A stretch of 63,216 nucleotides of DNA, counting the filler, from Stramenopiles sp. TOSAG23-6 (lineage: Eukaryota), in the NCBI GenBank assembly GCA_900128565.1. It is 16 parts of 16 records of this genome, joined end to end, with 100 filler letters (N's around TTAATTAATTAA, not from the genome) between each part and the next. Parts side by side here need not be neighbours in the genome. Positions count along the whole stretch, not along the records: positions 1 to 3,879 come from LT637339.1; positions 3,980 to 7,854 come from LT637340.1; positions 7,955 to 11,829 come from LT637341.1; positions 11,930 to 15,798 come from LT637342.1; positions 15,899 to 19,765 come from LT637343.1; positions 19,866 to 23,726 come from LT637344.1; positions 23,827 to 27,686 come from LT637345.1; positions 27,787 to 31,642 come from LT637346.1; 8 more parts are not named here. The stretch is one strand, 5' to 3'. Shown here one piece after another: positions 1 to 63,216 of this stretch; the stretch's first letter is position 1, and every line of letters starts with the position of its first letter. A program made the translations under genes and the position numbers. The notes beneath the pieces are model-generated. The model searched no databases. It worked only from the letters and a program-made list of their open reading frames with translations, and was not told the DNA's origin.

Positions 1-65
1 GAATTTATTTTTTTATAAAAATTTTGTACCTAACGATTTTTTTTTAAATATTTTTCAAAATACAT
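1..65 (+). other. 3' part of non-canonical intron with AT acceptor (actin gene)
   Basis: TTTTGTACCTAAC motif, then TTTTC-AAAATACAT directly before the conserved actin C-terminus; no AG between the motif and the exon. Confidence 0.85.
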
Positions 66-107
66 GATGAAGCTGGTCCCGCAATTGTACACCGCAAGTG
101 TTTTTAA
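66..107 (+). CDS. ACT: Actin, terminal exon (partial)
   Basis: Translates DEAGPAIVHRKCF*, matching the actin C-terminus DESGPSIVHRKCF; not in the ORF track. Confidence 0.9.
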   Translation, partial: DEAGPAIVHRKCF

Positions 108-375
108 ACTGCTATTCAAATTTTGTGTTTTGTGTCTCTGTAGTATGTAAGAAGACACGAGAAGAGAGCTCATCGAATACTTTCACGCAGTGATTGTAGA
201 CTGGTTTGTAGAACTTTTCTTATAACAAAAAAAAATGGGAAAAAGAAAAAAAAATGGAGAGTAATTCTCTTAGGATATAATAAACAGTATGAGGTCCGCC
301 AAAAAATGTATTGTTGTGATATTTATTTATTGTTTATTTTGATGATTTCAGTATATTTTCATCTATTATTTTTTT

Positions 376-1619
376 TCATTGTTTTAGTGGAGTGTTTTTG
401 AATCCTTGTCCGTTCACGTCTTCACCTGAGACTAAAAAACTTTGTTTATGATATAGTTGACCAGTTGCCCAATGCTGGTGAAGTTTTCCTACAGGTTTTT
501 TGTAATTAGCAGGTAAGTATCTGAGTATAATTATTCTACGCCAATTTTTAGTCGATGAATTTTTAGCAGAGCAATGTGGCGTTGCAGGGTGGTGCATTGC
601 AGCATCTCCAGCACGTAAATTATATTGCTCTACGTCTCTATTCCACCACTCATCATCCTCGATTTGGTATTTTTGTTTTGTGTAGTTTCGTGTTTGACAC
701 TTTGTAACTTTTTCTATTTCAAGCGAATTCAAACCATCTTTTTTTTCATTTTTAGCTTGTTTATGATAATACGAAAAATCTATCTCACTCATTTTTACTG
801 GCGGTTTGTCTATAAGGTTTGATAGAGACTGTTGATTTTCCTTGAATTGGGCCATTCCAGAAAAATAATTGTGCCTTTTTGACCTCTCAATAAACCTTGT
901 CCGAAGATGTCCACGGCGATGCCAGCCAGGTTTTACTTTTAACCCCCCATTTTCTGCATCAATGTCATCTAAACAAATCCATATTGTTCGCAAAATTTGA
1001 CCGTCTTGATGCCAAGGCACAATACCACCACCTTTCCCATTTTTATGACATATTGGTGGTTTGATGAGGACTTGAGCGGAGTTGAAGACGTAGTTATCAC
1101 CCAAATGGCGGTTTATGACGCGAAGTAAAGCAGGCTCTGAAGCAAGTTTCCACATCCAATTGCAGCTATCCGGCAACACTTGATGAAGATTCATAATCCA
1201 TGCTTTTNNNNNNNNNNNNNNNNNNNNNNNTTCATAATCCATGGTTCTTGTACACAAGGATGGAGATTTTCATATACATGTTGTACTTGTTCTTGCAAGA
1301 ACGTTAGGGCTTTTGGCCGAAGAAAGTTTCTAAGGAAACAGTATCCGTTCTTCTCAAAGAAAGCATGAGTTGCATCATCATACAAGTATTCTGAGTTCAC
1401 AAAAGGTGAAGTGTACATTACAGAACCGTGAGCTAAATCAGGAGCTCGTTTATAATTTATTGTTGCATCTATAGAGTTATTCGACGAGGAGATCCCAACG
1501 ACGTTGCCGTCGTCGTCCATTTTAACAGACGTTGATCCAACATTTTCTCCTCGTATTAGCTGGCGAAGCACGTCGCCCTTTGAACCAGCTGGTATCACCC
1601 ATCCATGAGACATAGACAT
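376..1619 (-). CDS. Phytanoyl-CoA dioxygenase (PhyH)-family 2OG-Fe(II) oxygenase, split by scaffold gap at 1208-1230
   Basis: FFEKNGYCFLRNFL, PWHQDG, IWICLDD, NGGL and H..PHCS..N..RR motifs; sequence either side of the gap overlaps (WIM). Confidence 0.85.
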
Positions 1620-1833
1620 ACCCACAATAAAACAACTTAAAAAAGTCTTTCAATAAAGTGCTTTAATTAGTAGTGTAATTACTATAATAAACGATCCAAG
1701 TATATTGTACCCCTCTACTATAGCTAGCAGGGCTGACAGTACCGAGTCAGTTGACCGACTCTATTCTGGGATATATTAGCCTTTAGNNNNNNNAAATTTC
1801 GTACAAAAAATACCTATATTCTATGATGAACAA

Positions 1834-2818
1834 TTACTTCTGCAAATCTTTCCAATAGGAAGTAATGGCTGTAAATGCCATCATCATAATTCCACCACCA
1901 GGTGCAAGTCTCATAACTTTTGCTCTATATCCTTTCCATAAGGCACCTACTCCTTCATTTCGCACAATATAAAGTATTGCCGATAGAGTGAATCTATATT
2001 TTGACGAAGCATGTGTTGTGAAATTTTTGGTGTAAAAAAATGTAAAAAAATCGTTAGGTACAAAATTTGGTACAAAAAAAATTAAAAATGAAAACGTACA
2101 TATTCTCTTAGTGTCACGTTTCTCTGTCTTGAACAAACAACATCAAACGGTGTATTTAATGTTGTTGCAGCAATAGATGCTATAAAACCGGCGACACAAT
2201 TTTGAGCCATTTCCATTTTCTTATTATCAGTTGTTTCAATCGAAAAGTTGTCGAAAAATATGTACTTGCCCAAATTCCATTTCGCAGTATTGCACATGGT
2301 GCACCAATCATAAATGCTGAGATGCCTTCATTTTTAAAAACACTAGTAAATGCATGAAAAGTATTTTTATATTCGTTTCTTAGAAACTTTTTTGACTGAA
2401 GTCGAACTTTTACAAGTTCTGCCGGAGCAACAGTGATAGCTTCTACACAACCAGCAAGAAACCCCGAGAGTGAAACTAGCTTCATAGTAGGTATATTTTC
2501 ACCAATAAGAGATTTCTTCAATTCTTCATTAACAGTAAACTTTGCAGCACGCTTTAGGGGCTCGACAAAGAGTGGTGGGGCTATACCACGGTAGAGTCTC
2601 CCAATTCCTTCTTTCTTTTGTATTTCAACTAATGTGCTTATAACACCGAGGTTTGAATTACCCACAGCTGTGCTTCTACTGTTTTGGATCTGCATTCTAG
2701 TTTTAACAACATCTAACGGGTATAATGTCAAAAGTTCAATTGCACCAGCAGTGGCACCTGCAAAAACATTTACATGGAATGGTACCACAGTTGAGATTTG
2801 TTTATTCGATTTGTCCAT
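1834..2818 (-). CDS. Mitochondrial carrier, oxodicarboxylate carrier (SLC25A21/ODC)-like; one intron and one apparent frameshift
   Basis: Three PxDxxKxR-type repeats (YPLDVVKTR, PAELVKVR, PFDVVCSR), PPLFVEPLKRAAKF, RLAPGGGIM. Confidence 0.85.
2011..2099 (-). other. GT-AT intron (89 nt)
   Basis: TAT|GTACGT...TTTGTACCTAAC...TTTC-ACAACACAT|GCT; removal gives LREY-ASSKYRF; nearest AG is out of frame and would delete the conserved KY. Confidence 0.85.
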
Positions 2819-3979: not shown

Positions 3980-4203
3980 AAAAAGTGAAAATTCTGAATT
4001 TGGCATAAAAAACAGGGTCTGTGCCCCGCTGTGCTGAAAATTCGATTCGATTTTTTGGGATTTCGATTTCGATTTTTTTTGCATTTTTTTTGGACGTTTT
4101 TGGAAAATGTTTTCGACCACGAATTGAATTCAATTTTAGCTAATATTTATCCAAAGCCTCGTTTATTTATTATAGTAGGTCCTACTAGTAGTTAGTAAAA
4201 AAA

Positions 4204-4839
4204 ATGTTGAATGATACTAATACAAAGAGTGCAGCTCATCTTTTTAGAGCATTGGCAACTGAACTACCAAAAATTAATAAGAAGCATTATTGGAAGATCT
4301 GTGGCAAAACATTTATGGATAATAGACCTGGTATAAAATTCCGGAAGCTATTTAGAAAAAAATTTACGGAGAAGGAGTTCTCCAAATTAAATTTAGCAGC
4401 AAAATTCTACACAAATAAAAAATGGAATATTCCTTTTACAAAATTGAGAAATGTTGCTCAATTAAATGGAGATAACGGTGGTCCATTCGATATTATGATT
4501 GGTACTTTTATAGAGGCTTATGATTTAGGTTGTAAAAAAAAAGATCTTTATCAGCTTCTTGTCATTGAAGAAGAGGAACCAGTCGTTGTTGAACAAAAAC
4601 ACAATAATATTGAAGAAGAACATCCAAACGAAATAGTACCCCCGTTAATAGATGAAGTTTCACTTAGTCATTCCAATATAATACATTCAAACAAGCGTTG
4701 TGAAGAGTCAGCACAGGTTATAAAAAGAAAGCGTCAAGAGCAGGATCATTTTGCATATTATGCAGAATTGAAAGACTTAAAAGAGACTTTCGACAGTGAT
4801 AGAAAACGCTTGAGACTGAAATATAACATAATCATATAA
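4204..4839 (+). CDS. Hypothetical protein (211 aa)
   Basis: Intact ATG-TAA ORF; no family recognised. Confidence 0.6.
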   Translation: MLNDTNTKSAAHLFRALATELPKINKKHYWKICGKTFMDNRPGIKFRKLFRKKFTEKEFSKLNLAAKFYTNKKWNIPFTKLRNVAQLNGDNGGPFDIMIGTFIEAYDLGCKKKDLYQLLVIEEEEPVVVEQKHNNIEEEHPNEIVPPLIDEVSLSHSNIIHSNKRCEESAQVIKRKRQEQDHFAYYAELKDLKETFDSDRKRLRLKYNIII

Positions 4840-5330
4840 ATAATACATAGTACTGAAAATAAATCTAAAGTTTAAAAACAATTTATTGTTCTTCACACAA
4901 AACAAAAAGCTAATTTCAACTAATTAAACTTTTTATACATATCAGATTTGGAATGTTTCAGTTATTTTTTTTTTACTAAAAAACGTTCATACATCTTACT
5001 CAAACACTTTTGTTGACATGGTGTTGTCCTTTGTAGCAGCTACATTATGCGTGAATTCAAAAATGATAATGCGTTGAAAGAAAACTTTGGTAAGAAATTT
5101 CGAAAATAAAAAAAAAGTTTGTTCAAAAACTTGGTAAGAAATTTCGAAAATAAAAAAGTGTTTTTTTTAATCAAAAATAGTACGTATATAGATAAATGTT
5201 CAACTCTAATCGCTTTTTATTCAAAAACACTTACAATGTTCAACTCTACACTTCGACTACTATAATTATTCAAAAACGAAGGAATACTGTTCATATCTAA
5301 TCCTACACAGTTGTATAAAACTATAGACTC

Positions 5331-5999
5331 TCACATTTGTGCAGAGAAATATTCAACTAATCTACTTTTTGTTGTATACATTGGGCTTTGTAACACCCGT
5401 ATGAGATGAAGGATTTTTGCATATGCAATTACAGCAAAAATATTACGTACTATGTAACTGATATGAAACCAAAGTGTTGACCAAGTTTGGGCTTGTTCAT
5501 TGCCATTTGGATGAACACCAGCACCAGAAATATGAGTAAGATAGATACGAAGTGTAGCATGGCCTACTGCAGTTATTGTATACAACATCACAGTAATCAA
5601 AGATATTTTTTCATTTTTCGCTATGACACTTGTCAATCCAATAGTATATGCAAAAGTACCAAACACCAAGTAACATATAGTACCCCAAATACTAAAAATT
5701 ACAAAAATTTGAGCTATGCCAATATAGATTGGCCCGGGTATATTATCAACTTCACCGTAAGCGTTTATCATGATATCACAAAAAAGTAAAAAATACGATA
5801 ACACATAAGGATTGAACAACCAATGAGAGGATGGATTGATATAGTCCCACTCTTCTTTTGAAGGAGGATGATTCTGACTTTCATTTATACCGTCTAAATG
5901 ATGACTTTTGGAGTACGGACTCCTACGTCTGAAAGACTCTTCAATTTCTTCCCCTGAGTCACTAAGTAAGTGTTCTGTCTGCTCAATATCATTCTTCAT
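5331..5999 (-). CDS. TMEM138: TMEM138-like ciliary membrane protein
   Basis: Multi-TM pattern LLFCDIMINAY...GTFAYTIGL...RNIFAVIAY...LQSPMY resembles TMEM138; start at MKND is inferred (ORF is open to 6236). Confidence 0.65.
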   Translation of the reverse strand: MKNDIEQTEHLLSDSGEEIEESFRRRSPYSKSHHLDGINESQNHPPSKEEWDYINPSSHWLFNPYVLSYFLLFCDIMINAYGEVDNIPGPIYIGIAQIFVIFSIWGTICYLVFGTFAYTIGLTSVIAKNEKISLITVMLYTITAVGHATLRIYLTHISGAGVHPNGNEQAQTWSTLWFHISYIVRNIFAVIAYAKILHLIRVLQSPMYTTKSRLVEYFSAQM

Positions 6000-6450
6000 T
6001 GCAGATGATAGTTTATAAGCACACTGTTCTATCGTGTTGATCAGGAAGTGATATAGTGCCGTAAGAGAGAAGTTAAGGGTATGATATAAGTATAAAGCAT
6101 AAATTAAAGTAACTGCCCAACTTGAACAACACGAAAACACGAAAAAAAACGAAAAAAGATCGACGTTGTTTCTGTCAAAAACGAAAGTAGCAAAATCGCT
6201 TTCGATCATCGATACCCTTTGTTCGTCTGTGGCCATTAATTAATATGCAAAGTAAAAGAAATGTTTGTATTGAGATAAAGTTAATAAAACATATTTAGAA
6301 AATATCTGACGTCATATTTACTTTATAATTCATATGAAATTGACTTGAGATTGAGAAGGTATCCCTAGATATCAATTATTGAGATATAGGAAATATTATA
6401 CGAACTCAAAAAAAAAAAAGAGTACAGACATCGGATTAGATTAAACAAAA

Positions 6451-7254
6451 ATGACTCTCTGTAAAAAAATAGGCTTATGCGTATTGCGTGTCATTGCATT
6501 CATAGTGCTCCTAATTTCAATTAGTCTTATTGGGCTTCACTTCGTAGATCATGACTTCACTTATACCCAAGAAAATAGAGATTGTCCAGACAAACAATAT
6601 CTAGAAGAACGTGGAGGCTTCAAAAGACTTGATATCGTTCGCGGTGACGGTGGTAACATCCTCAATCTAACAAATATTCCATCCTCCTTTTTGGACATTA
6701 CAGTGGTAGTTTCGTGGAATCTACCTATTTGGATTGGTATTGTTGCAAAAAATGTAGATGACAGTAACCCCTATGGTCCAGACATATTGAATAATCCTGG
6801 AAAGCCTAAGGGCGTTCATTTTACTGCAGGCGGTCCTACAAGTTTAAAAACACGTAGTTACACCTGGAAACAGGTGAAAGCTGCAGTGTATGTATTCTAT
6901 ATGGGTGCAAATAAGGGCTATGGGTGCAATTATAAAACCCCATTAGACATCCACGTGCTGGTTAATGTGCGTCTATGAACTTGTGGTTTAGCACTCTTAG
7001 CATCAGTATCCTTAATTTGTATTCTGTTTATTGCATACCCATATTATTCTAAATGTCTAAAGAAATCCAGTCAGGCAGAGTCAAGTGAGAATTATTCAAC
7101 AAAATCAAGTGAGAATTACAGAAAGTCAAGTGAGAAATATTCTACGATCTCAAGTGTTCCCTTGAATACAAATAATCCTCCGATGGAAGCGATCCCTTTG
7201 ACGAAAGCAAAGACACAGGAGTGGTCAAAGGAGGATGCATCAATAAATGTGTGA
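6451..7254 (+). CDS. Two-TM membrane protein with in-frame TGA at 6976-6978
   Basis: N-terminal TM; frame stays open 91 codons after the TGA and encodes a second TM (TCGLALLASVSLICILFIAYPYY). Confidence 0.55.
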
Positions 7255-7954
7255 GCAAAAACGAGTTTGAAATATGATCTGAATTAGATACACCAACTTG
7301 CTTTGTGGCAATACATTAAAAAACAAGTCATAGCATCAACAACAATAAAAGATTCTTCAAGATACATTTTTGTTTTGTCATCCTGGTACTCACTCTCTTG
7401 GCATAATTTCAAAAGGTTTTATTATTTTTTTTCAATAGTTTTAACTTGTCATTTTATCATATAAGTTAAGTTAAGCAAGTATTACGTTGCATCTATTAGC
7501 TCCATTTCTTCATCAATTTCTTCAAGTTCTGTTTCAATAATCAAGTCAATTATTTCTTTTTACACTTGAGAATGAGAAATTGAAATTTTCATTATGGACA
7601 AACACCATACATTCATTTATTTTTGTCACTAGAAACACCAGCTACTCACACTCACACTGTTTTTTTATTTTATTTTTCCCTTTATTTTTTTTTATATTTT
7701 TTTATTTTGTATTATGTGTGGAAAAACACCATACATTCATTTATTATGTCCTTTGGAGCTTCTTCCGTTGTTGCTGTGATTCCCTACGTCCTCTTCCTCC
7801 CCACCAACTCTTTATTTTTTTTATTTTTCCCTCTTTTTTTATTTTTATTTTTTANNNNNNNNNNNNNNNNNNNNNNNNNNNNNNNNNNNNNNNNNNNNTT
7901 AATTAATTAANNNNNNNNNNNNNNNNNNNNNNNNNNNNNNNNNNNNNNNNNNNN

Positions 7955-10900
7955 AAAAAGTGAAAATTCTGAATTTGGCATAAAAAACAGGGTCTGTGCC
8001 CCGCTGTGCTGAAAATTCGATTCGATTTTTTGGGATTTCGATTTCGATTTTTTTTGCATTTTTTTTGGACGTTTTTGGAAAATGTTTTCGACCACGAATT
8101 GAATTCAATTTTAGCTAATATTTATCCAAAGCCTCGTTTATTTATTATAGTAGGTCCTACTAGTAGTTAGTAAAAAAAATGTTGAATGATACTAATACAA
8201 AGAGTGCAGCTCATCTTTTTAGAGCATTGGCAACTGAACTACCAAAAATTAATAAGAAGCATTATTGGAAGATCTGTGGCAAAACATTTATGGATAATAG
8301 ACCTGGTATAAAATTCCGGAAGCTATTTAGAAAAAAATTTACGGAGAAGGAGTTCTCCAAATTAAATTTAGCAGCAAAATTCTACACAAATAAAAAATGG
8401 AATATTCCTTTTACAAAATTGAGAAATGTTGCTCAATTAAATGGAGATAACGGTGGTCCATTCGATATTATGATTGGTACTTTTATAGAGGCTTATGATT
8501 TAGGTTGTAAAAAAAAAGATCTTTATCAGCTTCTTGTCATTGAAGAAGAGGAACCAGTCGTTGTTGAACAAAAACACAATAATATTGAAGAAGAACATCC
8601 AAACGAAATAGTACCCCCGTTAATAGATGAAGTTTCACTTAGTCATTCCAATATAATACATTCAAACAAGCGTTGTGAAGAGTCAGCACAGGTTATAAAA
8701 AGAAAGCGTCAAGAGCAGGATCATTTTGCATATTATGCAGAATTGAAAGACTTAAAAGAGACTTTCGACAGTGATAGAAAACGCTTGAGACTGAAATATA
8801 ACATAATCATATAAATAATACATAGTACTGAAAATAAATCTAAAGTTTAAAAACAATTTATTGTTCTTCACACAAAACAAAAAGCTAATTTCAACTAATT
8901 AAACTTTTTATACATATCAGATTTGGAATGTTTCAGTTATTTTTTTTTTACTAAAAAACGTTCATACATCTTACTCAAACACTTTTGTTGACATGGTGTT
9001 GTCCTTTGTAGCAGCTACATTATGCGTGAATTCAAAAATGATAATGCGTTGAAAGAAAACTTTGGTAAGAAATTTCGAAAATAAAAAAAAAGTTTGTTCA
9101 AAAACTTGGTAAGAAATTTCGAAAATAAAAAAGTGTTTTTTTTAATCAAAAATAGTACGTATATAGATAAATGTTCAACTCTAATCGCTTTTTATTCAAA
9201 AACACTTACAATGTTCAACTCTACACTTCGACTACTATAATTATTCAAAAACGAAGGAATACTGTTCATATCTAATCCTACACAGTTGTATAAAACTATA
9301 GACTCTCACATTTGTGCAGAGAAATATTCAACTAATCTACTTTTTGTTGTATACATTGGGCTTTGTAACACCCGTATGAGATGAAGGATTTTTGCATATG
9401 CAATTACAGCAAAAATATTACGTACTATGTAACTGATATGAAACCAAAGTGTTGACCAAGTTTGGGCTTGTTCATTGCCATTTGGATGAACACCAGCACC
9501 AGAAATATGAGTAAGATAGATACGAAGTGTAGCATGGCCTACTGCAGTTATTGTATACAACATCACAGTAATCAAAGATATTTTTTCATTTTTCGCTATG
9601 ACACTTGTCAATCCAATAGTATATGCAAAAGTACCAAACACCAAGTAACATATAGTACCCCAAATACTAAAAATTACAAAAATTTGAGCTATGCCAATAT
9701 AGATTGGCCCGGGTATATTATCAACTTCACCGTAAGCGTTTATCATGATATCACAAAAAAGTAAAAAATACGATAACACATAAGGATTGAACAACCAATG
9801 AGAGGATGGATTGATATAGTCCCACTCTTCTTTTGAAGGAGGATGATTCTGACTTTCATTTATACCGTCTAAATGATGACTTTTGGAGTACGGACTCCTA
9901 CGTCTGAAAGACTCTTCAATTTCTTCCCCTGAGTCACTAAGTAAGTGTTCTGTCTGCTCAATATCATTCTTCATTGCAGATGATAGTTTATAAGCACACT
10001 GTTCTATCGTGTTGATCAGGAAGTGATATAGTGCCGTAAGAGAGAAGTTAAGGGTATGATATAAGTATAAAGCATAAATTAAAGTAACTGCCCAACTTGA
10101 ACAACACGAAAACACGAAAAAAAACGAAAAAAGATCGACGTTGTTTCTGTCAAAAACGAAAGTAGCAAAATCGCTTTCGATCATCGATACCCTTTGTTCG
10201 TCTGTGGCCATTAATTAATATGCAAAGTAAAAGAAATGTTTGTATTGAGATAAAGTTAATAAAACATATTTAGAAAATATCTGACGTCATATTTACTTTA
10301 TAATTCATATGAAATTGACTTGAGATTGAGAAGGTATCCCTAGATATCAATTATTGAGATATAGGAAATATTATACGAACTCAAAAAAAAAAAAGAGTAC
10401 AGACATCGGATTAGATTAAACAAAAATGACTCTCTGTAAAAAAATAGGCTTATGCGTATTGCGTGTCATTGCATTCATAGTGCTCCTAATTTCAATTAGT
10501 CTTATTGGGCTTCACTTCGTAGATCATGACTTCACTTATACCCAAGAAAATAGAGATTGTCCAGACAAACAATATCTAGAAGAACGTGGAGGCTTCAAAA
10601 GACTTGATATCGTTCGCGGTGACGGTGGTAACATCCTCAATCTAACAAATATTCCATCCTCCTTTTTGGACATTACAGTGGTAGTTTCGTGGAATCTACC
10701 TATTTGGATTGGTATTGTTGCAAAAAATGTAGATGACAGTAACCCCTATGGTCCAGACATATTGAATAATCCTGGAAAGCCTAAGGGCGTTCATTTTACT
10801 GCAGGCGGTCCTACAAGTTTAAAAACACGTAGTTACACCTGGAAACAGGTGAAAGCTGCAGTGTATGTATTCTATATGGGTGCAAATAAGGGCTATGGGT

Positions 10901-11829
10901 GCAATTATAAAACCCCATTAGACATCCACGTGCTGGTTAATGTGCGTCTATGAACTTGTGGTTTAGCACTCTTAGCATCAGTATCCTTAATTTGTATTCT
11001 GTTTATTGCATACCCATATTATTCTAAATGTCTAAAGAAATCCAGTCAGGCAGAGTCAAGTGAGAATTATTCAACAAAATCAAGTGAGAATTACAGAAAG
11101 TCAAGTGAGAAATATTCTACGATCTCAAGTGTTCCCTTGAATACAAATAATCCTCCGATGGAAGCGATCCCTTTGACGAAAGCAAAGACACAGGAGTGGT
11201 CAAAGGAGGATGCATCAATAAATGTGTGAGCAAAAACGAGTTTGAAATATGATCTGAATTAGATACACCAACTTGCTTTGTGGCAATACATTAAAAAACA
11301 AGTCATAGCATCAACAACAATAAAAGATTCTTCAAGATACATTTTTGTTTTGTCATCCTGGTACTCACTCTCTTGGCATAATTTCAAAAGGTTTTATTAT
11401 TTTTTTTCAATAGTTTTAACTTGTCATTTTATCATATAAGTTAAGTTAAGCAAGTATTACGTTGCATCTATTAGCTCCATTTCTTCATCAATTTCTTCAA
11501 GTTCTGTTTCAATAATCAAGTCAATTATTTCTTTTTACACTTGAGAATGAGAAATTGAAATTTTCATTATGGACAAACACCATACATTCATTTATTTTTG
11601 TCACTAGAAACACCAGCTACTCACACTCACACTGTTTTTTTATTTTATTTTTCCCTTTATTTTTTTTTATATTTTTTTATTTTGTATTATGTGTGGAAAA
11701 ACACCATACATTCATTTATTATGTCCTTTGGAGCTTCTTCCGTTGTTGCTGTGATTCCCTACGTCCTCTTCCTCCCCACCAACTCTTTATTTTTTTTATT
11801 TTTCCCTCTTTTTTTATTTTTATTTTTTA
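7955..11829. repeat. Redundant copy of contig 3980-7854 (genes repeated at 8179-8814 +, 9306-9974 -, 10426-11229 +)
   Basis: Same length (3875), same ends, identical ORF translations at offset 3975. Confidence 0.97.
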
Positions 11830-11994
11830 NNNNNNNNNNNNNNNNNNNNNNNNNNNNNNNNNNNNNNNNNNNNTTAATTAATTAANNNNNNNNNNNNNNN
11901 NNNNNNNNNNNNNNNNNNNNNNNNNNNNNAAATTTGTTAGGTACAAAATTTCGTACGAAAAAAAAATCGAATTTGAAAAAAAATTAAAACATAC

Positions 11995-23920: not shown

Positions 23921-26635
23921 ATGTTTGGCTTTACATTTTTACAATTTTGTAAAGCTTTTAATAGCCAATTTTTATCATTAATAACGCGATTTGAAATAGG
24001 ACCAATTTTTTGTATATATTCTTTTTGCAATTCATGTAAAGTTTGAGTATTTTGAGTATTTTGTAGTGTTTTTTGAGTATTTTTTGGTGTTTTTTGAGTA
24101 TTTTGTAGTGTTTTTTGAGTATTTTTTAGTGTTTTTTGAGTATTTTTTAGTGTTTTTTGAGCATCTTCATTTTTTAAACATTTTGATTGTTGGCTTGTAG
24201 GGTTAGGGTTTGATCCAAACTGTTCTTTATTGGTAACATTTGTTTTATACCTAGTACGTAAATTTCGAAACCCAACATAATATTGAGAGTTTTTTTGTAA
24301 AGCATTTTTTAACCACTTTTTATTATTAAGAAAACGATTTGGAATATTTCCAATTTTTTTTTTGTATTCTTTTTGTAAATCTTCCAAAGTATTTTGGAAA
24401 AATATTTCAAAAAAAAAAAATCGTTAGGTACAAAATTTCGTACAAAAAAAAAATGTTTTTTTTTACGAAAAAACAAAAAATAAATAAAACATACATATAT
24501 CGAGATTTGTTATTGGTTCCATTTGAGATTTCGTGTTTGATTTAATGTTTGATGGCTCCAATGTACACGACTGACCATTTGATGTTTCAATCTTGCGATT
24601 ATATAAATACTCAAATGCACATAATCGCAAATTGTTATATAATACATGTTGTGTAAAGAAAATATTTAAAAAAAAAAAAAAAATGAGTAAAAAAAAAAAA
24701 ATTTAAAATTTTTTTTTTAAAAAAAAAAAAAAATTAAAAATTTTTTTTTAAAAAAAAAAAAAATTTAAATTTTTTATTAAAAAAAAAAAAAAAAAAAAAT
24801 TCATTATGAAAAAAAAAAAAAAAAAAAAAAAGGTACATTTTCATACAGCATTTGAGTTTTAATCTTTGACCCTTTTGGAAGAAAACTTCTGTACCAATGA
24901 TGTACGGAGTAAATATATATTTGCAAATTAAAAAAAATCTTAGGTACAAAAATTTTCATAGTTAAAAAAAATTTTACATTTCCAGATTTGAAACTAAATT
25001 TTTTTTTTTTTTTTTTTTTTCATTGTTGAAAATAAAATCATACTGTAAATAAGATAAAAAACATACATATAATGTGTTGTGCAATGTCATTGTTTGTAGA
25101 CATCGAATCTTGCCATTAGGCAAAAGGTCAGCTTTAGGTAAATCGATATTTAATTGTTTTCTGTATTGTGAAAAAATATTTTTTTTTTTTTTTTTTTTGA
25201 AATTTTTTTTTGTTAGGTACAAAATTTCCTACGAAAAAAATTTCAAAAAAAAAAAAAAAAATCATGTTGAAAACGTATAAAATCTCATTTGTCAATTTCA
25301 ATGTCAAAATGTTTTCAGCTGGTGTGATAATATCCATGCGCATTAATTTATGCACAAATTTGAAACTATTCTTTTCAACATTATGATCAACAGTATTGTC
25401 TTTTTTTTTTTGTTTTGTTTTTGTTTTTGGTTTCGTTGTAAGTGCAGTGCTTGATGGAACCATTTGCATATTATTTTGTTGTTTATTTTGTTGTTTATTT
25501 TGTATTTTTTTTCCAGACGTTGATGTTTTTTGTTTAGGGTTAGACAAGATGTTAGGGTTAGGAGTAACACGACCATTAGTAGGAGCATTAGTAGTAGGGT
25601 TAGGGTTTGGTGTTGTAAACAATTGAGTTTTATTGAGAAGTTGTCGAATTGAAATTCGAGTTGAATTAACTTTTGGAAAAATATTTCAAAAAAAAAATCG
25701 TTAGGTACAAAATTTCGTACGAAAAACCAAAAAAAAAAAACGAATTTGAAAAAAAATTAAAACAAACATTGAATTTTGAGTCTGTTGTTTTTGTTGTTTT
25801 TGTTGTTTTTGTTGCATTTTTTTGTATTTGTGTAGGATTAGTCTGTTCAATCGTTTTTGTTTTTATGTTTTGTGTGTGTTTTGTTGTTGTTGCTGTTGTT
25901 GTGATTTCTCTTTTTCTTTTTGCTTGAAGAATGTTTTTTGGAAAAATATTTCAAAAAAAATTTTGAAAATTTGTTAGGTACAAAATTTCGTACGAAAATT
26001 TTTTTTTATTGGAAATAAATTAGAAATTCATATAAAACGTACACGAGGAATCGTTCGTGTTTTTTCTGGTCTTCAGCTTTCTTTTTCATTTTATCTTCTT
26101 GTTGTTTTTTATAGACCAATTCTTGTTTCTGTCTTTTGATTTCTCGTTTTTTTCTTTTGATTTCTTCTTTTTTTCTTTTGATATCTTCTTTTTTTTTAGA
26201 TTCCATTTCTTCACGCTTTCGTTTCATTTCTTGGCTTCGAGTGTACTCCAATTCTTCTTGCTTTTGCTTTTCAAGTGACAAAGCTATAATATTCTCATAA
26301 TCATGATACATTTGCTTTGATAATGTATACTGAATCGCCATAATTTGTACAACATATGACCCAAGGGAAGACGCCGCGAGAGCTTCCCGTTGAAAGAGAA
26401 GTTTGATGGCTTCGAGAGACATTCCAAACACTTTTGTTGGTCCCACTTTTAATAAAAAAGACAATACATATGGATTATTTGATGTATGTATATAATCCTT
26501 AATGTTGTGTAACTGGAAAATAGGTACACTATCTTCAATACGAATGGGAGCAATATCCATACCACCACATTGTTTCATTGCATCGACAGTGAAAGTGACG
26601 AGTTGATATTTTGATCCAAGGGGAAGACTTGACAT
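23921..26635 (-). CDS. Hypothetical multi-exon low-complexity gene; introns 25931-26042, 25665-25767, 24900-25066, 24646-24836 (GT-AT), 25161-25278 (AT-AG), 24388-24494 (GT-CT?)
   Basis: Frame is kept across the listed junctions; no family recognised; may be chimeric. Confidence 0.5.
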
Positions 26636-27648: not shown

Positions 27649-27686
<38 letters not shown>

Positions 27687-31882: not shown

Positions 31883-33548
31883 GTTTACAGCAGCATTACC
31901 CGCTATTTATTATCCAGTCAGTTTGTTCATTGGTATTACTATATATGTACTGTTTATGCCACGTGTCATTTGGTGGACAGTATATAGAGTTGTTTTTTCG
32001 TGTTTTTATGGTGTTCGATTTCGTGATGCTTTTTTGGGTGATATTATGACGTCACTTGCAAAACCTATGGTTGATTTCGTGTTGGCTGTATGTACACTTA
32101 CAACTACAACAGATTGGTTACATGTATGTGTTATGGTTTTCAATGTTGTACCGAACTTTTTTTTTTTTTTTTTTTTTTTAATAGGAAATTTTGTACCTAA
32201 CAAATTTTTTAGAATTTTTTTTCAATTTTTATCTATTTTTTTTTTGGTTTTCATACGAAATTTTGTACCTAACATAAAAACAATATATTTTTTCATAGTA
32301 CATAACACCAACCCTAACACAATGAAAGTATGCACAAACAAAGATGACGTTATTCAGTATGTATGTTTTATTTTTATTTTTTACAAGAAAATAGAATTTT
32401 TTTTTTTTAAAAAAATAGAAATTTTTTTTTATAGGAAATTTTGTACCTAACAATTTTTTTTTTAGAAAATTTTGGAATATTCTTCAAAAACACATGTACT
32501 ACCGTTTGTGAGTGCTTTACCCTTATTTTTTCGTTTGGTACAAAATTTAGTACGGTATAAGGAGACTTCACGACGTTTTCCACATGTACGTTTTTTTATT
32601 ATTATAATATTTTTTTCATAGTAAATTTTGTACCTAAGCAAAAATCAATTTTTTTTTTAAATTTTTTAAATTTTTTAAATTTTTTAAATTTTTTAAATTT
32701 GATTACAAAAAACAAACAAAAACAAAAGAATTAAATATTTTTCCAAAATAAATGTTTTTAATGCTCTAAAATATGCTGTTGCCCATTCCGTTGTTTTTTT
32801 TGGCACATTTAATAGATTACCAAAGTTTGGACATGTATGTTTTTTTTTTTTTGAAATTCGATTTTTTTTTTCGTACGAAATTTTGTACCTAACAAATTTT
32901 CAAAAAAAAAATTTTGAAATATTTTTCCAAAATTTATCATTTTTCAAGTCATGCTATTCGAATTCTTTATTTTTTTTGTTTTTTAATAGCAACATTATAT
33001 CAATTTATCTGGGATATTTTTGTTGATTGGATGCTAGGGAGGTGTAACCCTAACCCTTTGAAAAAACATGAAAATGTAGAAAATGATGATGAAATTGAAA
33101 ATGATGAAAAAAATACAAAAAATACAAAAAATACAAAAAATAAAAAAAATGATTTAAACCCTAACCCTAGCAGTTATGGTTTACGAGCACATACAATGTA
33201 TCCAATATGGTATTATTATACTGCTATTTTATGTGATTTCGTGTTGCGATTTATTTGGACGTTGACATTAATACCAAGCACAGCTGCAAGCATGTACGTT
33301 TTTGTATCATGAGTGTTTTTTTTTTTTATACGAAATTTTGTACCTAACCACAAAAAAAAATACATTTAGGCATAATTGAATTGATACGACGTGGCATGTG
33401 GGCAGTATTTCGTGTAGAATCACAACAATTATCAAATTTTGAGAAATTTCGTCGTGTTGATTTTATACCGTTACATTTTTCAACACCTGTTTGTTTTTCT
33501 TATGAATCTTTTTTTTCGTAGAACATTTCGTACCTAACCAAACCATAC

Positions 33549-39368: not shown

Positions 39369-39645
39369 TTATTTTTTTCTTAGGTACGAAATTCGGTACA
39401 AAAAAAAATGAAATTCATGGGTTAAGTGGTCCAAGGATCTGTGAAAGACAGATTTATCATATATACTATGAAATTGCAATGATTCCATAATATTATCTCT
39501 AATAAAAATTGACTTCAATCTATATTTTTATTATCTCTAATAAAANNNNNNNNNNNNNNNNNNNNNNNNNNNNNNNNNNNNNNNNNNNNTTAATTAATTA
39601 ANNNNNNNNNNNNNNNNNNNNNNNNNNNNNNNNNNNNNNNNNNNN

Positions 39646-45600: not shown

Positions 45601-47443
45601 TTATATTCTTTGTTGAGATAATCTGTTTTTCCTTGGACCATTCACGTTTTTTCTGCAGAACATTATTTTGCATATCTTCACATACTTGCTTATCGAGTTT
45701 GAACTTTACAGTTGTATCTGCTACATCAGATTTGAGATTAGAAATCTCTTTAAGGAGAATTTCCATTTTTGATGTCCTTGTAGCTGCATCTGATTTGAAA
45801 GTTGTTTCCTCCTCGCGGAGTTTTGCAGATAACATTGAGGCCTCTGCGTACTTCAATTTGTTCTCCTCGCTCAATTTGTCTTTTACTGATATCCCATCAC
45901 GGATTTTGCGCTTCAACCCGTGAAGTTTTGTTTTTGTGATCTCCACAGCAACTTCTACGCTTTGAAGTATGTGAACTTCGTCCCTGAGATTTTTTTCTTT
46001 TTCAGAGATTTTTCGACGTGTTTTTAGAGTTTCTTTCTTTGCTTTTGAGTACTCCATATTTTTTTCTTTTATTATTCGTTTAATATTTCCTTCCAATGTT
46101 TGTAAGTTCACTAATTCTTTAGCAAGAAGAATTCTAGATTGTTTTTCTGTAATGAGCTGGTTTTCTATAAATTCAACTTCAGATTGGACTACGTTTCCTT
46201 TTTCTTCTAAAGTTTTGCATTTTATGTCACTTTGCAAAGCACTATGCTTAATGCGCCGCATAATAACATCATATGTTTTCAAATTCATATTACTTCCCGT
46301 GTCAATAACCTGTGTCGGTATTGGGCTATTGTTTGGTACGTTGAAAACATTTGTTTTTTTTGATGGAGTCGTCTTCATGTTTACACTNCATACCATGGAT
46401 GGATGTTCCTTTTGTATCCTCGCCTGTTTATCTTGGTATGTTTCAAATTTACTCATAGTGACAATTTACTGATATATGATCCTTGTCCTTATTTGTGGTT
46501 CCTGCGTTTAAAATTCTTCTCTTTCCTTTCTATATTATAAACATATGTAGATGGTACACATGGATTAAGGGGGGTACCGTTAGCCAAGGGGCAACAAACA
46601 AAACCGTTGTATTATTTTTAACAGCTAAAATTAACGGTCGTCGTCCGAAATCGAGGTCAGGTCAACATCAACAGTTTGGCTCTGCTGCGGTCAAAACTCA
46701 AAACAAGAACAAAAGCAAAACATCACCAAAGAGCAACAAAAACAGTTAAAGTGAAAATGCAAAGTAATGCTGAAGATGTTCGCGAATTTACAGCAGGCGC
46801 TGGTCAACCAACTCCGGATACTCCTGAATTGATGAATAAAACCGAAGTGAACTTTATCGGAAAGATGATTATTGATGAGTTACTTGAGCTTTTTTCGACT
46901 CAGTATGGAGCTAAAGAGGCAAAGTCTATCTTGTCTGGTTTTGTTCAGAATGCCAAGGAACTGCCACAAATGCCTACAAATACTAAAGAAGAACGTCTGG
47001 AACAATTGGCAGAACAAGGTGATGCTTTAGTTGACATTTATTATTATTCTCTCAACGCTGCATGTAAAAAGGGAGTTAATCTCTCCTCAATTTTCAACTG
47101 TGTCCACAAAGCAAATATGGCAAAGCGTGATCCAGCCACAGGAAAATTTCTCAAACGTGCTGATGGGAAAATTTTGAAGCCTGCTGGATGGAAAGCCCCA
47201 GATATTGCCGCAGAAATCCAAAGACAGTGTGATGAAGGGTCATTTGCAAAGCAAAACCAGTTATGATTATTTTTTTCTTAGGTACGAAATTCGGTACAAA
47301 AAAAAATGAAATTCATGGGTTAAGTGGTCCAAGGATCTGTGAAAGACAGATTTATCATATATACTATGAAATTGCAATGATTCCATAATATTATCTCTAA
47401 TAAAAATTGACTTCAATCTATATTTTTATTATCTCTAATAAAA
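39646..47443. repeat. Two redundant copies of contig 35697-39545 (39646-43494 and 43595-47443)
   Basis: Same length (3849), identical ORF translations, same single ambiguous base at 38490, 42439 and 46388. Confidence 0.97.
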
Positions 47444-59544: not shown

Positions 59545-60756
59545 GCATGTGAACTTTTAAGTGGTGGATCAAATCCTACTGTTTGTCATATTACGGCGTT
59601 TACTTGGTTTACAGCATTTACAGGTCAATCATTAATTAATTTAAATGGTTATGTACAACCTCTTTTATATTGGGCTTTTCCTAAAAAAGTATCAAAACCA
59701 AACTGTAGAGAAACTCTGACACGTGTCGCAGATTTATCAGATATAACAAATAAACTTTATGATTCATCTAGTAGACAAATGAACCGTTTACATCCAACAA
59801 ATACATATCAACAAAAATGGAGTGAAAAACAAGAAAAACAAGAAAAACAAGAAAAACAAGAAAAACAAGAAAAACAAGAAAAACAAAAATGGAGTACACG
59901 TCATGAAAAACAAGAAAGTAAAACAGTATTGGTACAGAATCCAGCCTTGCGTGCGAAACATGTTCAAAGTGTTCAAAGTGGTACAAAACATGTACAAAGT
60001 GTTCAAAGTGGTACAAGACATGCAGAAAGTGTACAAAGTGGTACAAGCCATCTACAAAGTGTTCAAAGTGGTACAAAACATGTACAAAGTGGTCAAAGTG
60101 TTACATTGTCTCAAAAAATGGAACAATCTAAAAACATTACATTTGGGTATCTTAACAATGGAGTTCATTATTTTGCAATACATATGCGGAATGTAGGCAA
60201 AATAGATCCAAGTGGTAATCAACATCATTTTCTAGTTTTAAAATATAATGAAAAATGTTGGATTGTTCAAGCGTATGCTTGTTCACGTTTAAATTGTATG
60301 TAACCCTAACCCTAATAACCCTAACCCTAATGTAAAAAAATGATTTATTTTTTTTTTTGGTAAAAAAAATTTGTACCTAACAATGTAAAAACAAATTTAT
60401 TTATTCTTTACAATAAATGTTCATATGCGACAAAAAAAACTGAAATAAAATGTTCTGAATTCTCACAAGATATAATAGATTTGCATAGAAATAGTGATGA
60501 AAGTAAAAGACAAAAAATATATCAAAAATTGTTTTTAGTACCAAGAGATGATGTTTCAATATTAGACTATGTTATTTATTCATTTGCTCCTTTTGAAAAA
60601 GATTTCTTAACTTTAAGTGAAATGTCTCTATCTGCTATTTATGCACATGATGTTGCAGAGATGTTTTTCCCTCTTTCAAGAGTCAAACAATATTTATGTC
60701 TTAGTTGTGGACTTCGATCAGAAAAAACTCCAATGTATGATTTCATGATTCATTTC

Positions 60757-60787
<31 letters not shown>

Positions 60788-61855
60788 ATTATTTTTTTTT
60801 TTTTTGTACCTAACAAAAACAAATATATATTTTTTTAAATACTTTTTTCACTATACATTGGATCTTCACTTCCTATTGCTGAAACAAAAGTAAATCATCC
60901 AATATCTAAAATAATACATATAACTGAAACAATTGGTCATTTGAACATGGTTATGCTATTTGAAAATTTAACAGGATTTGGATTTTTGAATCCGATGACA
61001 TCATCTATTATTACAAATGTAGAATTATTTGTTTCAATTTATTTATCTCATACTATAAATGATGTTATTCATGGAGGTAGTAGTAGTAGTAGTAGTAGTG
61101 TTGATGGAGATGGTATTGGGGTTGATAAAGATATTAATAGTAGTAGTGTTGATGGAGATGGTATTGGTGTTGATAAAGATATTAATAGTAGTAGTGTTGA
61201 TGGAGATGGTATTGGGGTTGATAAAGATATTAATAGTAGTAGTGTTGATGGAGATGGTATTGGTGTTGATAAAGATATTAATAGTAGTAGTGTTGATGGA
61301 GATGGTATTGGGGTTGATAAAGATATTAATAGTAGTAGTGTTGATGGAGATGGTATTGGTGTTGATAAAGATATTAATAGTAGTAGTGTTGATGGAGATG
61401 GTATTGGGGTTGATAAAGATATTAATAGTAGTAGTATTGATATTGCTACTGGAACTATTGATATTGCTAGTAGTAGTAGTATTAATATAGATAGTAGTAG
61501 TAGTGTTGATGAAGATATTGATAGAGCTACACCAATGATAAAAAGTGATGATTATACATCAAGAATTAGAGTGTCATACACTGGTGATAGTATGCATTAT
61601 CATTTTAAGTCTTGGTTTGAAATTGAGCCAAATGTATCTGGTCAATATTGTACATTTTCAACTATTTATACTACAAATCAACAAAAACAAACACGGACAA
61701 TATTTCGTGCTCATCTTCAATCAACATTTAATCAAGTACCAGTGACAAATGCTATACAAAGTGATACAGAATTTATATTTTTATTTGATTCTGAAAGAGT
61801 AAGAAATTCATTTTGTACAATATTAACAAAACATTTGACTTTATTATTAAAATAA
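59545..61855 (+). CDS. Hypothetical multi-exon gene; GT-AT introns 60296-60418 and 60735-60858
   Basis: Both junctions in frame (phase 1 and phase 2); several internal tandem repeats. Confidence 0.65.
61091..61426 (+). repeat. 48-bp coding tandem repeat x7 (SSSVDGDGIGVDKDIN)
   Basis: Units alternate GGG/GGT at one Gly codon, giving a 96-bp higher-order period. Confidence 0.95.
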
Positions 61856-62277
61856 ATAAGAATTTTGACTAACACTTTGACTTTAGTATTGAAATAAAGA
61901 TATATTTATTACAATTGAAAATGTTCATTTGTCTTGTTTTAAAATATATAAATTATAATTTTTTAGTATATAATCAATTATATGGTTTTGTTTTAAAATA
62001 TATAAATTTTGATATATTTGTCAATATTACTGTATATATAATTTTTTACTATATATTGTTTTGATATTTGTTTTGTATTGAAATATATATATCAATATAA
62101 AAAAGATATAAATGTGTTTGAAATATTTTTTACTAGTAAATAAAATAATGTAAAATATACATTTGTACCATTTTTTTGTACCTAATAAATTACACTATTA
62201 ACAATTCATCATACTTCTTCCTTGTTTTACTACAATATTTACAAACAAAGTTGTACCATTTTTTTGTACCTAATGAA

Positions 62278-63106
62278 TTATACCATAAAAACTTCATCAT
62301 CATCCATCATGATTCGTTCTTGTTCCACAAGTGTATTGAGACATTGTTTCACTTGTTGAGGTGAATGTTTTTTGTGATGATATTTTAAAAAAAAAAATTG
62401 TTAGGTATAAAATTTCGTATGAAAAAAAATTTTCATTTTTTTTTTTGTTAGGTACAAAATTTCGTATGAAAAAAAAAAGTTAAAATTAAAATCCAAAATG
62501 AAAAACGTACATATTCTCCATTTTGACCAGTTGAGATTTCTTGAATAATATCAGTCACCATCATTGATTCAACACGATGTTTTTTAAACATTGCAACAAG
62601 TAATTTTTGAAATAACATTTGTTTTTCAGGTGTAACTGTCGAATTTTGATTATTTTGATTTTCAAGATTTTCATTTTGATTATTTTCATTTTCAAGATTT
62701 TCATTTTGATTTTCATTTTGATTTGAAGATTTCATATTATTTTCATCATCAGATAAAGAAGAATTTGATTTCTTTTTTTTACTTTTTGATTTTGAATCAT
62801 TATTTTCATCATCACGTCTTCGTTTTTTTCGTTTTTTCTTTTTCTTTTTATCTTTTTTAGATTTTTTATCTTTTTTTGATGTTTTATCTTTTTTCAAATC
62901 ATCACAATTAAATTCAGCTTCTTCTTCATCTTCAATTTTTTCATTAGTTAAATGAGTATCTGCATCATGGTACATTGCAAAATTAAGTATTTTAATAGCA
63001 GCATCACAATCTTCACCATCAACACTCTTAGATAATCGTAATTTAGCATGTGCGGATGATAAACGAATAAGAGATTCTAATTGACGTGCTGTTACAGGTA
63101 ATGTTC
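62278..63106 (-). CDS. MCM3: MCM3, last two exons (63106-62511, 62364-62278)
   Basis: TLPVTARQLESLIRLSSAHAKLRLSK and winged-helix end Y-SPQQVKQCL...IMMDDDEVFMV*. Confidence 0.85.
62365..62510 (-). other. GT-AT intron (146 nt, two core motifs)
   Basis: TAT|GTACGT...CAAAAAACAT|TCA, phase 0 in frame; upstream acceptor ACACTATAT at 63107 also ends in AT. Confidence 0.88.
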
Positions 63107-63216
63107 ATATAGTGTAAAGAAATATTTTTTTTTTTAAATAATTTTTTTTTCGTTAGGTACAAAATTACCTATGAAAAAAAATATTTTAATTTTTTTTTTT
63201 TTTTTTTTTTTTTTTT

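Follow-up and report, generated by a model that had tools for sequence, protein, structure and literature searches.

The window studied here, a stretch of 63,216 bases from Stramenopiles sp. TOSAG23-6 composed of 16 pieces of about 3.9 kilobases (kb) each from a fragmented assembly and 15 spacers (N44-TTAATTAATTAA-N44) between them, harbors a single homologous family of intervening sequences which, judged from the DNA, are probably transposon-like (introner-like) spliceosomal introns with a 3′ splice site other than AG, removed as GT...AT. According to domain profiles and reading frames, no fewer than three conserved domains, namely Pkinase, EXS and Mito_carr, require the removal of such a segment and leave no AG that could serve as acceptor. 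A class of introns ending in AT had been reported in a preliminary description of this window; the class is real and lies far above chance expectation, while some of the examples given for it do not stand and the exact boundaries are ambiguous by up to 2 nucleotides (nt). Two features had been overlooked there, the homology of the copies over their whole length and the dinucleotide AT that directly precedes the GT in 22 of 29 copies.

A homologous family of probable introns

The extended branch-point box TTTTGTACCTAAC, a relative of TACTAAC with one extra C, is found at 64 sites of the whole window with up to two mismatches; 3.61 would be expected, and a count of 64 is not attained in any of 100 shuffles. 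Because several pieces of the window recur, by assembly or sampling redundancy, such whole-window counts include some sites more than once. In the hand-curated set, copies in duplicated pieces are counted once; it comprises 24 complete copies of 72–208 nt, five copies with the 5′ end only and seven with the 3′ end only, all of the partial copies being cut by contig ends. When all TTTTGTACCTAAC sites are printed with their flanks, the intervening sequences are similar to each other from end to end and well beyond the shared motif, which argues for one repeat family and not for unrelated introns with common signals.

An alignment of 17 family copies depicts a common layout of GTAYGTTTT, followed by TTTCGTACGAAATTTTGTACCTAAC, T-runs and the tail GAAATATTTTTCCAAAATACAT. 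The consensus derived from it spans about 100 nt and reads, with slashes at the ends of the element, AT/GTATGTTTTA, T-run, (CAAATTTGA), T-run, CGTACGAAATTTTGTACCTAAC, AAATTTT, T-run, GAAATATTTTTCCAAAATACAT/. Within this alignment CCTAAC is invariant (17 of 17 copies) and a TTCC box is located 10–13 nt from the 3′ end; the spacing of 9 nt between TTTTCC and the exon, for which the preliminary description gave 9–10 nt, agrees with the consensus TTTTTCCAAAATACAT. The family furthermore carries a 12-nt palindrome, TTTCGTACGAAA. In the 24 complete copies the CCTAAC box is separated from the 3′ end by a median of 43 nt (range 18–120), and the tails between the two consist of 483 T, 483 A, 126 C and 31 G. 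Nine AGs are found inside these tails and are evidently not the ends used.

The copies share a branch box and a pyrimidine-rich stretch with U2-type introns, and their GT lies within a GTRNGT-like hexamer as in U2-type 5′ sites, while the 3′ AG of that class is seen at just one of 31 alignable 3′ ends. As in introners and MITEs (miniature inverted-repeat transposable elements), many near-identical introns reside in unrelated genes, here those of a kinase, an EXS protein, RIO2, a GFAT-like protein, an MCM protein, a PRP40-like protein, a mitochondrial carrier and unnamed genes. Every copy that interrupts a coding frame is in sense orientation, and the spliceosomal signals are better conserved than the remaining sequence of the element. 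A transposon origin of the family is likely.

Two tandem TTTCRTACGAAATTTTGTACCTAAC cores are present in six introns (18588–18795, 32124–32303, 53848–54011, 57997–58178, 62365–62510 and 58928–59095), and in 57997–58178 the duplicated part amounts to about 80 nt, 3′ tail included. This arrangement points to internal duplication or to the insertion of one copy into another. A diverged family-like copy on the minus strand (12530–12625, GAC/GTACGTTTTCAT ... GAAACCTAAC ...) lies within a presumed single exon and is kept outside the curated count. The sole exact copy of the 13-mer branch box seen outside an intron-like context is located at 17545–17575, in antisense and directly upstream of the ATG of a minus-strand gene for a leucine-rich repeat (LRR)/coiled-coil protein.

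Reading frame and conserved domains across the introns

Removal as GT...AT restores the reading frame in 20 of the 24 complete copies, where about one third would be expected by chance. The frame restoration proposed in the preliminary description is thus upheld, with 20 copies in place of the 22 counted there. Frame by itself was given up as a means of choosing acceptors, since sequence this rich in A and T offers too many in-frame AT, AC and AG ends.

Three introns are placed within domain profiles. In the kinase gene (13467–13561) the Pkinase profile runs from position 5 to 118 at the last full upstream codon and stands at 121 at the second downstream residue; the two residues between them are that of the junction codon and one other. 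In the EXS gene (32586–32753) the profile, matched upstream over 167–195, stands at 195 at the last upstream residue and at 197 at the second downstream residue, so that the junction falls between 195 and 196, and in the mitochondrial carrier (2011–2099) the Mito_carr profile extrapolates to position 41 on either side. The AGs in the vicinity of these three introns are out of frame where they lie within the intron, at a depth of 25–29 nt, and likewise in the carrier, at +17; the others are 61–62 nt into the exon, and splicing to them would cost the kinase its catalytic loop or the EXS protein its motif. The kinase and EXS sites therefore lack a usable AG, just as the preliminary description had it. 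Among all 24 complete copies, the first AG encountered in the downstream exon would keep the frame in seven and break it in 17.

Gene models for RIO2 in two collections, Logan and EukProt, read from the exon into the intron 53848–54011 and stop there (window positions 53848–53900), from which it follows that standard annotation does not see these introns. The EukProt model additionally omits two stretches within the exon.

Other sites of the preliminary description carry less weight. The introns assigned to PRP40 (21179–21270) and MCM3 (62365–62510) are in frame as GT...AT, but their junctions are located outside the matched parts of the domains. For the gene at 58227–58340, taken there for ITPR, neither a PDB nor a Pfam match is obtained and the identification is not confirmed. 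Downstream of the acceptor at 55782 a GFAT-type SIS exon does follow as described, but the intron is out of frame in the only long open frame upstream; the long open reading frame behind the next intron, 55917–56025, has no homology to GFAT.

Intron ends and the position of the cuts

At the 5′ end GT is present in 27 of 29 copies, followed by A at +3 in all 29, G at +5 in 28 and T at +6 in 28. Among the alignable 3′ ends, AT is found in 29 of 31 and AG in one; five family-like introns which have both AG and AT in-frame ends (donors at 18366, 18975, 19403 and 33489, and at 25767 on the minus strand) are left out of this count. The AT directly before the GT, present at 22 of 29 5′ ends, compares with an AT background of 9.6% in three long exons (binomial p 3e-17), and position −3 is not duplicated across the intron ends. 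T occupies the last exon position in 28 of 29 copies and the last intron position in 30 of 31. Where canonical introns read AG/GT...AG/G, the family thus reads AT/GT...AT/G, a pattern to which either a duplication or a coordinated change in the reading of both positions would give rise.

Because the introns end in AT and are preceded by AT, cuts as GT...AT, TG...CA or AT...AC yield one and the same product, with an ambiguity of up to 2 nt. Consequently, neither frame nor homology nor ordinary RNA-seq junctions can separate these registers in the AT-duplicated copies. The conservation of the dinucleotides themselves favours the GT-AT register. Read as GT...AT, the 3′ AT (29 of 31) matches the 5′ GT in constancy; read as AT...AC, the 5′ AT is kept in 22 of 29 and the AC at −4,−3 in 22 of 31; read as TG...CA, the T at exon −1 and the G at +1 are each kept in 28 of 29, the C at −3 in 23 of 31 and the A at −2 in 30 of 31. 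Seven 5′ ends lack the upstream AT (four have TT, two GT and one AA), and six of these still start with GT. Nine 3′ ends lack AC at −4,−3 and have AA (six copies), GC, AT or TT instead. From these frequencies we consider the GT-AT register the probable one and the AT-AC register unlikely, with the remaining weight left to other readings. As GT and the terminal AT are the two best-conserved dinucleotides, a spliceosome that accepts AT would be the likeliest reading.

Several observations weigh against this assignment. In the 22 copies of 29 with a duplicated AT, the GT-AT, TG-CA and AT-AC products are identical. The complete, in-frame, GT-initial copies without upstream AT are four in number, 12301–12408, 57997–58178, 60296–60418 and 25931–26042; the first three have an in-frame AG further downstream and the last could be GT-AC, and homology does not settle them, as the proteins that they interrupt match nothing in Pfam or PDB significantly around the junction. 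Three copies (33294–33365, 55586–55782 and 55917–56025) are out of frame as GT...AT and a fourth, 24900–25066, is ambiguous, although two of the three regain the frame if the end is set at an AT lying four bases upstream or the start at a GT lying two bases upstream. The copy 25161–25278 reads ATACGT...ACAG, thus AT...AG in the register of the family, and together with up to five family members it may still use AG. The terminal symmetry of the element is confined to (AT)GTAT ... ATAC(AT), 4–6 nt and hence short for a terminal inverted repeat, and RNA folding of six copies (z-scores from −2.9 to +1.4) gives no consistent stable hairpin and thus no support for guidance by hairpins as in euglenids or Amoebophrya. 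Finally, a 20-mer of the family core has no match in the JGI metagenome contigs, which leaves no empty sites or relatives for comparison. On the same side stand two copies that deviate in the manner of the AT-AC register: 24387–24494 ends in ATACTT, with the AC alone intact, and the cut copy at 23920 starts with GGATGT, having GG for GT, yet retains the upstream AT.

If the family is spliced as AT-AC, the AT in front of GTAYGT would open the intron and ...ATAC would close it, so that the downstream AT stays exonic; this reading fits the two deviating copies and the frequency of both dinucleotides. AT-AC is also the one pair other than GT-AG known to satisfy the contact between first and last intron base (A1-C(−1)), in both the major and the minor spliceosome. 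Against it, the seven 5′ ends without AT and the nine 3′ ends without AC would become AA-AA, TT-AC, TT-AA, AT-GC, AT-AT and AT-TT introns. GTAYGT is the classical U2-type site, and a cut 2 nt upstream would place the hexamer out of its normal register with U1 and U6. These points make AT-AC splicing an unlikely alternative.

Less probable modes of removal

Still less probable is a transformed minor (U12-type) spliceosome, as in Physarum, where thousands of new minor introns have mixed termini (AT-AG, AT-AA, GT-AT and AT-AT). U12-type introns are defined by the 5′ site RTATCCTT and a branch box TCCTTAAC located 10–15 nt from the 3′ end. The CCTAAC of the family resembles this box, the TTCC box lies 10–13 nt from the 3′ end, and the family combines GT...AT copies with one AT...AG copy. 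The near-constant G at +5 and the T at +6 belong, however, to a U2-type hexamer and not to RTATCC, and the distance from CCTAAC to the 3′ end is far beyond that of the U12 class, to which the family does not conform by this definition. No match to U11, U12 or U6atac is found in the window, though none would be expected in 63 kb. In favour of this reading, GT-AT introns make up 17% of the 1,014 non-canonical U12-type introns of Physarum (bioRxiv 10.1101/2020.10.12.336362).

Removal at the DNA level, whether in the manner of internal eliminated sequences or by transposon excision, or no removal at all with the genes being dead copies, would fit the direct AT repeat, the short inverted ends and the high copy number, all of them transposon-like. 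It is nevertheless very improbable in view of the sense orientation of all frame-interrupting copies and their full set of conserved spliceosomal signals, and the interrupted genes are conserved with open frames on both sides. Moreover, the segments are present in the assembly DNA itself, and nuclear dimorphism is not known in stramenopiles. Internal eliminated sequences of the Paramecium type are bounded by TA and absent from somatic DNA, whereas the ends of the family are AT/GT...AT/ and not TA...TA.

That the family consists of ordinary GT-AG introns with true acceptors elsewhere, the AT ends being an artefact of hand annotation, is barely credible: AT-rich sequence does offer many in-frame ends, an AG would be possible in frame for five family-like introns and a minority of the complete copies have their first exon AG in frame, but in the majority it is out of frame, the terminal AT is nearly constant, and at the introns of the kinase, EXS and carrier genes no AG can be chosen that preserves both the Pfam profile and the frame. 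GT-AG splicing at 13467–13561, 32586–32753 and 2011–2099 is ruled out in this way, unless the segments are retained in the RNA.

Comparison with known intron systems

Fritillaria, Amoebophrya and euglenids are documented to have introns of transposon origin whose ends are non-canonical, with short inverted termini and with direct repeats where intron and exon meet (PMC11282704, PMC7789003). These groups are also the lineages listed for non-canonical junctions, those of Fritillaria borealis being AG-AC and AG-AT with target-site duplications and terminal inverted repeats (PMC11282704).

The family resembles the MITE-derived introns of F. borealis in that the intron ends appear to correspond to element ends plus a short exonic repeat which helps to form the 3′ site; most introns of F. 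borealis escape GT-AG, AU-ended introns exist and the major spliceosome is adapted via U2AF paralogues (PMC11282704, PMC13326754). These divergent paralogues bind non-AG ends including a 3′ AU probe, as described in a paper of 2026 (PMC13326754). Unlike the family described here, with its textbook GTAYGT and one dominant 3′ type, Fritillaria has 5′ ends that are mostly AG (AG-AC, AG-AT) and very diverse. A further difference is that here almost every copy observed belongs to one family, which has a strong branch box, and that the host is a stramenopile.

With the introners of Amoebophrya the family has in common repeated introns, apparent direct repeats at the boundaries, apparent terminal inverted repeats, predicted non-canonical sites and the failure of standard gene prediction (PMC7789003). 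More than 60% of the introns of Amoebophrya are non-canonical with no dominant pair, direct repeats of 3–5 nt span the boundaries, the inverted repeats of 8–20 nt form hairpins and U1 is apparently lacking (PMC7789003). By contrast, one pair is dominant in the present family, the symmetry is restricted to 4–6 nt without a consistent fold, and the 5′ site is a strong U1/U6-type site.

The introners of Micromonas and of the stramenopile Aureococcus are likewise short and non-autonomous and are spread over many genes without relation to each other; the element supplies one of the splice sites, while the target-site duplication is co-opted as the other (PMC11282704, PMC7789003), as reported for Micromonas in particular (PMC11282704). 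Their introns are GT/GC-AG with duplications of at least 3 bp, those of Aureococcus having canonical motifs (PMC7789003), whereas the apparent duplication here is the 2-bp AT and the 3′ site is not AG. The U12-type introns of Physarum share GT-AT and AT-AG termini with the family, and likewise a massive recent gain of introns with changed signals; there, however, GT-AT accounts for a small fraction (17% of 0.8% of introns), with RTATCYTT as the 5′ site and 10–12 nt between branch site and intron end (bioRxiv 10.1101/2020.10.12.336362).

A near-invariant 5′ hexamer and branch box are also features of yeast introns. The U2-type introns of yeast are highly constrained (GTATGT ... TACTAAC ... YAG), with signals conserved by function among otherwise unrelated introns that end in AG; contrary to these, the family is homologous over the whole intron, its branch box has an extra C and its end is AT. 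Taken together, the family, found in a stramenopile, is unusual in that its 5′ site and branch box are of textbook type while one predicted 3′ end other than AG is dominant.

The statement of the preliminary description that no lineage dominated by GT-AT introns is known agrees with the literature found, in which neither such a lineage or family nor the introns of MAST-3 stramenopiles are described. In the main text of the single-cell genomics study of these stramenopiles (PMC5778133) the word 'intron' occurs twice, both times in the methods, while its supplements may hold intron statistics; in PMC12614181 the word is absent. The introner survey of 2025 starts from annotated introns and drops families with unfamiliar splice sites unless these are supported by RNA (PMC12130899), and for both reasons it would miss an AT-ended family.

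Searches for transcripts, relatives and spliceosomal components

Parts of a 7.8-kb stretch of the window are present in three metatranscriptome runs, with shares of 0.09–0.14, and in six DNA runs. Shares this small are no evidence of expression, as the repeated intron core could give rise to them as easily as exons. The RIO2 exon recovers from a large protein collection just the two unspliced models of the same organism and no spliced product; the stretch around the intron 12301–12408 finds nothing there at E ≤ 0.001, and nothing is found with the EXS exon 32938–33291. A representative protein library contains neither a close relative nor a spliced product, the best match having 64% local identity, and the JGI contigs contain no relative of the RRP6-like protein. 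One isolated match of the core 20-mer in a Bacteroidales metagenome-assembled genome is taken as chance. In the window itself, an Rfam scan detects no small nuclear RNA at the gathering threshold or at E ≤ 1, and no U2AF gene is present.

Individual copies, gene content and assembly

The copies are compiled in Table 1. The 13 C-terminal codons following the cut copy at 1..65 are presumably those of actin.

Table 1. Positions and properties of family and family-like introns in the window. A slash marks the intron boundary in the GT...AT register; +n denotes nucleotides into the downstream exon.
Feature	Position	Strand	Remarks
3′ part of family intron ending ATACAT, before last 13 codons of actin-like gene	1..65	+	cut copy
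Family intron, third repeat of mitochondrial carrier, 89 nt	2011..2099	-	in frame; first exon AG at +17, out of frame
Family intron without upstream AT, CAA/GTAAGT...ATAAAT/G, 108 nt	12301..12408	-	open in frame; in-frame AG at +12
Family intron, AT/GTATGT...ATGCAT/T, 104 nt	12775..12878	-	in frame; GC, not AC, at -4,-3
Family intron near consensus, 103 nt	13263..13365	-	in frame; TAG inside the intron, 33 nt before its end, would also be in frame
Family intron, kinase catalytic loop, AT/GTACGT...ATACAT/G, 95 nt	13467..13561	-	in frame; lone tail AG 29 nt inside; first exon AG at +61
5′ part of family copy	15713..15798	+	cut by contig end
Family-like intron	18366..18490	+	end CAG (18484) or ACAT (18490)
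Family intron, two cores, ending GATAT	18588..18795	+	in frame; AT-AC register would give AT-AT
Diverged family copy, PRP40-like gene	21179..21270	+	junction codon T+GG = Trp; FF match elsewhere in open reading frame
Family intron ending ATACTT	24387..24494	-	GT-TT or AT-AC by register; in-frame AG at +6
Family intron, 167 nt	24900..25066	-	downstream frame ambiguous
Family copy ATACGT...ACAG	25161..25278	-	AT...AG in family register; in frame
Family intron preceded by GT, cgt/GTACGT...AACAT/T	25931..26042	-	GT-AT or GT-AC; no nearby in-frame AG
Family intron, EXS gene, two cores, 180 nt	32124..32303	+	in frame
Family intron, EXS gene, 135 nt	32361..32495	+	in frame
Family intron, EXS domain, AT/GTACGT...ATAAAT/G, 168 nt	32586..32753	+	in frame; tail AG 25 nt inside; first exon AG at +62
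Family intron, EXS gene, ending TTTAT, 103 nt	32835..32937	+	in frame; AG at +11 out of frame
Family intron, EXS gene	33294..33365	+	not in frame as GT...ACAT; phases 2 and 0; needs 1 nt less or AT 4 nt upstream; both flanks match EXS profile
Family intron, RIO2, two cores	53848..54011	+	in frame; two database gene models run into it
Family intron before GFAT LHAG exon	55586..55782	+	out of frame in long open upstream frame; would fit a short alternative one
Family intron preceded by GT	55917..56025	+	in frame just from GT 2 nt upstream or to AT 4 nt upstream
Family intron preceded by TT, core duplicated in tandem, 182 nt	57997..58178	-	in-frame AG at +15
Family intron, site formerly termed ITPR, 114 nt	58227..58340	-	frame fits following 48-nt exon
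Family-like intron preceded by TT, ending ATAAAT	60296..60418	+	in frame; CCCTAA repeats inside
Family intron, AT/GTATGA...ATACAT/T, 124 nt	60735..60858	+	in frame
Family intron, 3′ of MCM AAA-lid domain, two cores, 146 nt	62365..62510	-	in frame
Other cut 5′ parts	23664	+	
Other cut 5′ parts	11994; 23920; 59095	-	GGATGT at 23920
Other cut 3′ parts, ends	16029; 55488; 59544	+	
Other cut 3′ parts, ends	51338; 27561; 58928	-	
Similar family-like introns, donors (four in all)	18975; 19403; 33489	+	both AG and AT in-frame ends
Similar family-like introns, donors (four in all)	25767	-	both AG and AT in-frame ends

The window has a guanine plus cytosine content of 19–37%. Its genes are eukaryotic and include those of a RIO2 kinase, an RRP6-type exonuclease with PMC2NT, a RING protein, an LRR protein, an FF-domain protein, a mitochondrial carrier, PhyH, protein kinases, a THOC5-like protein and an EXS-family protein, as well as an MCM AAA-lid domain and the GFAT-type SIS exon. 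The RIO2 exon is identical to one Logan-assembly protein and, gaps aside, to the EukProt entry 'GSMAST32.ASY1.ANO1.458.1 assembled CDS'. This label suggests that the source is a single-cell assembly of a MAST-3 marine stramenopile.

In the carrier gene the frame shifts between the second and third repeats (2215–2270, minus strand) with no recognisable intron, probably by a 1-nt assembly error, and this calls for caution against leaning on the three out-of-frame introns. The exon at 58717–58995 recurs as 58997–59275; it has family intron ends on both sides and is assembled twice in tandem around single Ns, probably as a collapse or mis-join due to the repeated introns. Telomere-like CCCTAA repeats are located inside an intron at 60296–60345 (GTATGTAACCCTAACCCTAATAACCCTAACCCTAA...) and at 54834–54850, near the start of an inverted repeat (54790–55333) with arms of about 270 nt and its centre near 55065, at a contig end. 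At this centre, sub-threshold Rfam matches to MITE-derived plant microRNA families are obtained on both strands (MIR1120, 41.7 bits compared with a gathering threshold of 86). In appearance the inverted repeat is a foldback element or an inverted chimera of the kind that whole-genome amplification produces.

Two pieces of the window are duplicates (3980–7854 and 7955–11829, the open reading frames repeating at a constant offset of 3,975 nt) and three are triplicates (35697–39545, 39646–43494 and 43595–47443, offset 3,949 nt). On the minus strand at 35649–38567, and in its two repeats, an open frame of 972 codons is found which matches no Pfam family and has a strong AT skew of about −0.33; GTACCGAATTTCGTACCTAAG, a relative of the branch box, flanks it at 39379–39403.

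Proposed mechanism and implications

In the mechanism proposed for the GT...AT introns, AT-rich introner-like elements would have invaded genes and would act there as spliceosomal introns, removed at the RNA level by the major spliceosome. The yeast-like U2-type 5′ site GTAYGTTTT together with the strong branch box would commit the intron, and the second step would use an A-U dinucleotide behind the T-rich, AG-poor tail. With the 5′ cut placed before the G of GTAYGT, the 3′ cut would fall after ...A(C/A)AT, the last intron base being U in place of G while the A at −2 is retained. The AT in front of the GT would have arisen as a 2-bp target-site duplication, when an element inserted in the manner of a transposon, or be the trace of a proto-splice-site preference, with AT/G in place of AG/G; with either origin, taking out the element and one AT would restore the original message. 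The host spliceosome would have to tolerate, or even prefer, U at the last intron position. Such a changed major spliceosome would be expected to go along with a U2 branch-binding site complementing UACCUAAC, a U1 5′ end that pairs with AU/GUAYGU and a divergent or duplicated U2AF1 zinc finger.

The preliminary description had gone further and ascribed to the lineage a spliceosome that prefers AT acceptors. A spliceosome accepting AT is retained here as the leading reading, but the pattern may be confined to one repeat family instead of marking the whole lineage. By analogy with other transposon-derived non-canonical introns, the family may bring or co-opt its own 3′ end without a lineage-wide change of preference. 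The more comprehensive reading, that the preferred 3′ site of the major spliceosome has shifted from AG to AU with a parallel change of the last exon base from G to U, that one introner family has spread this signature, that the G1-G(−1) contact has become G-U and that most introns of an abundant ocean protist are invisible to standard gene finders, has in our estimation slightly less than an even chance of holding in all its parts.

As both RIO2 models stop inside the intron, proteomes predicted for this group with GT-AG introns only are probably truncated or frameshifted at these elements, which would distort functional inferences on this uncultured group. If confirmed by RNA, the family would represent a natural U2-type spliceosome which routinely ends introns at AU and would offer a direct test of the way in which U2AF and the second catalytic step read the final base of the intron. 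A stramenopile would thereby join the few lineages in which transposon-like introns are paired with relaxed splice rules.

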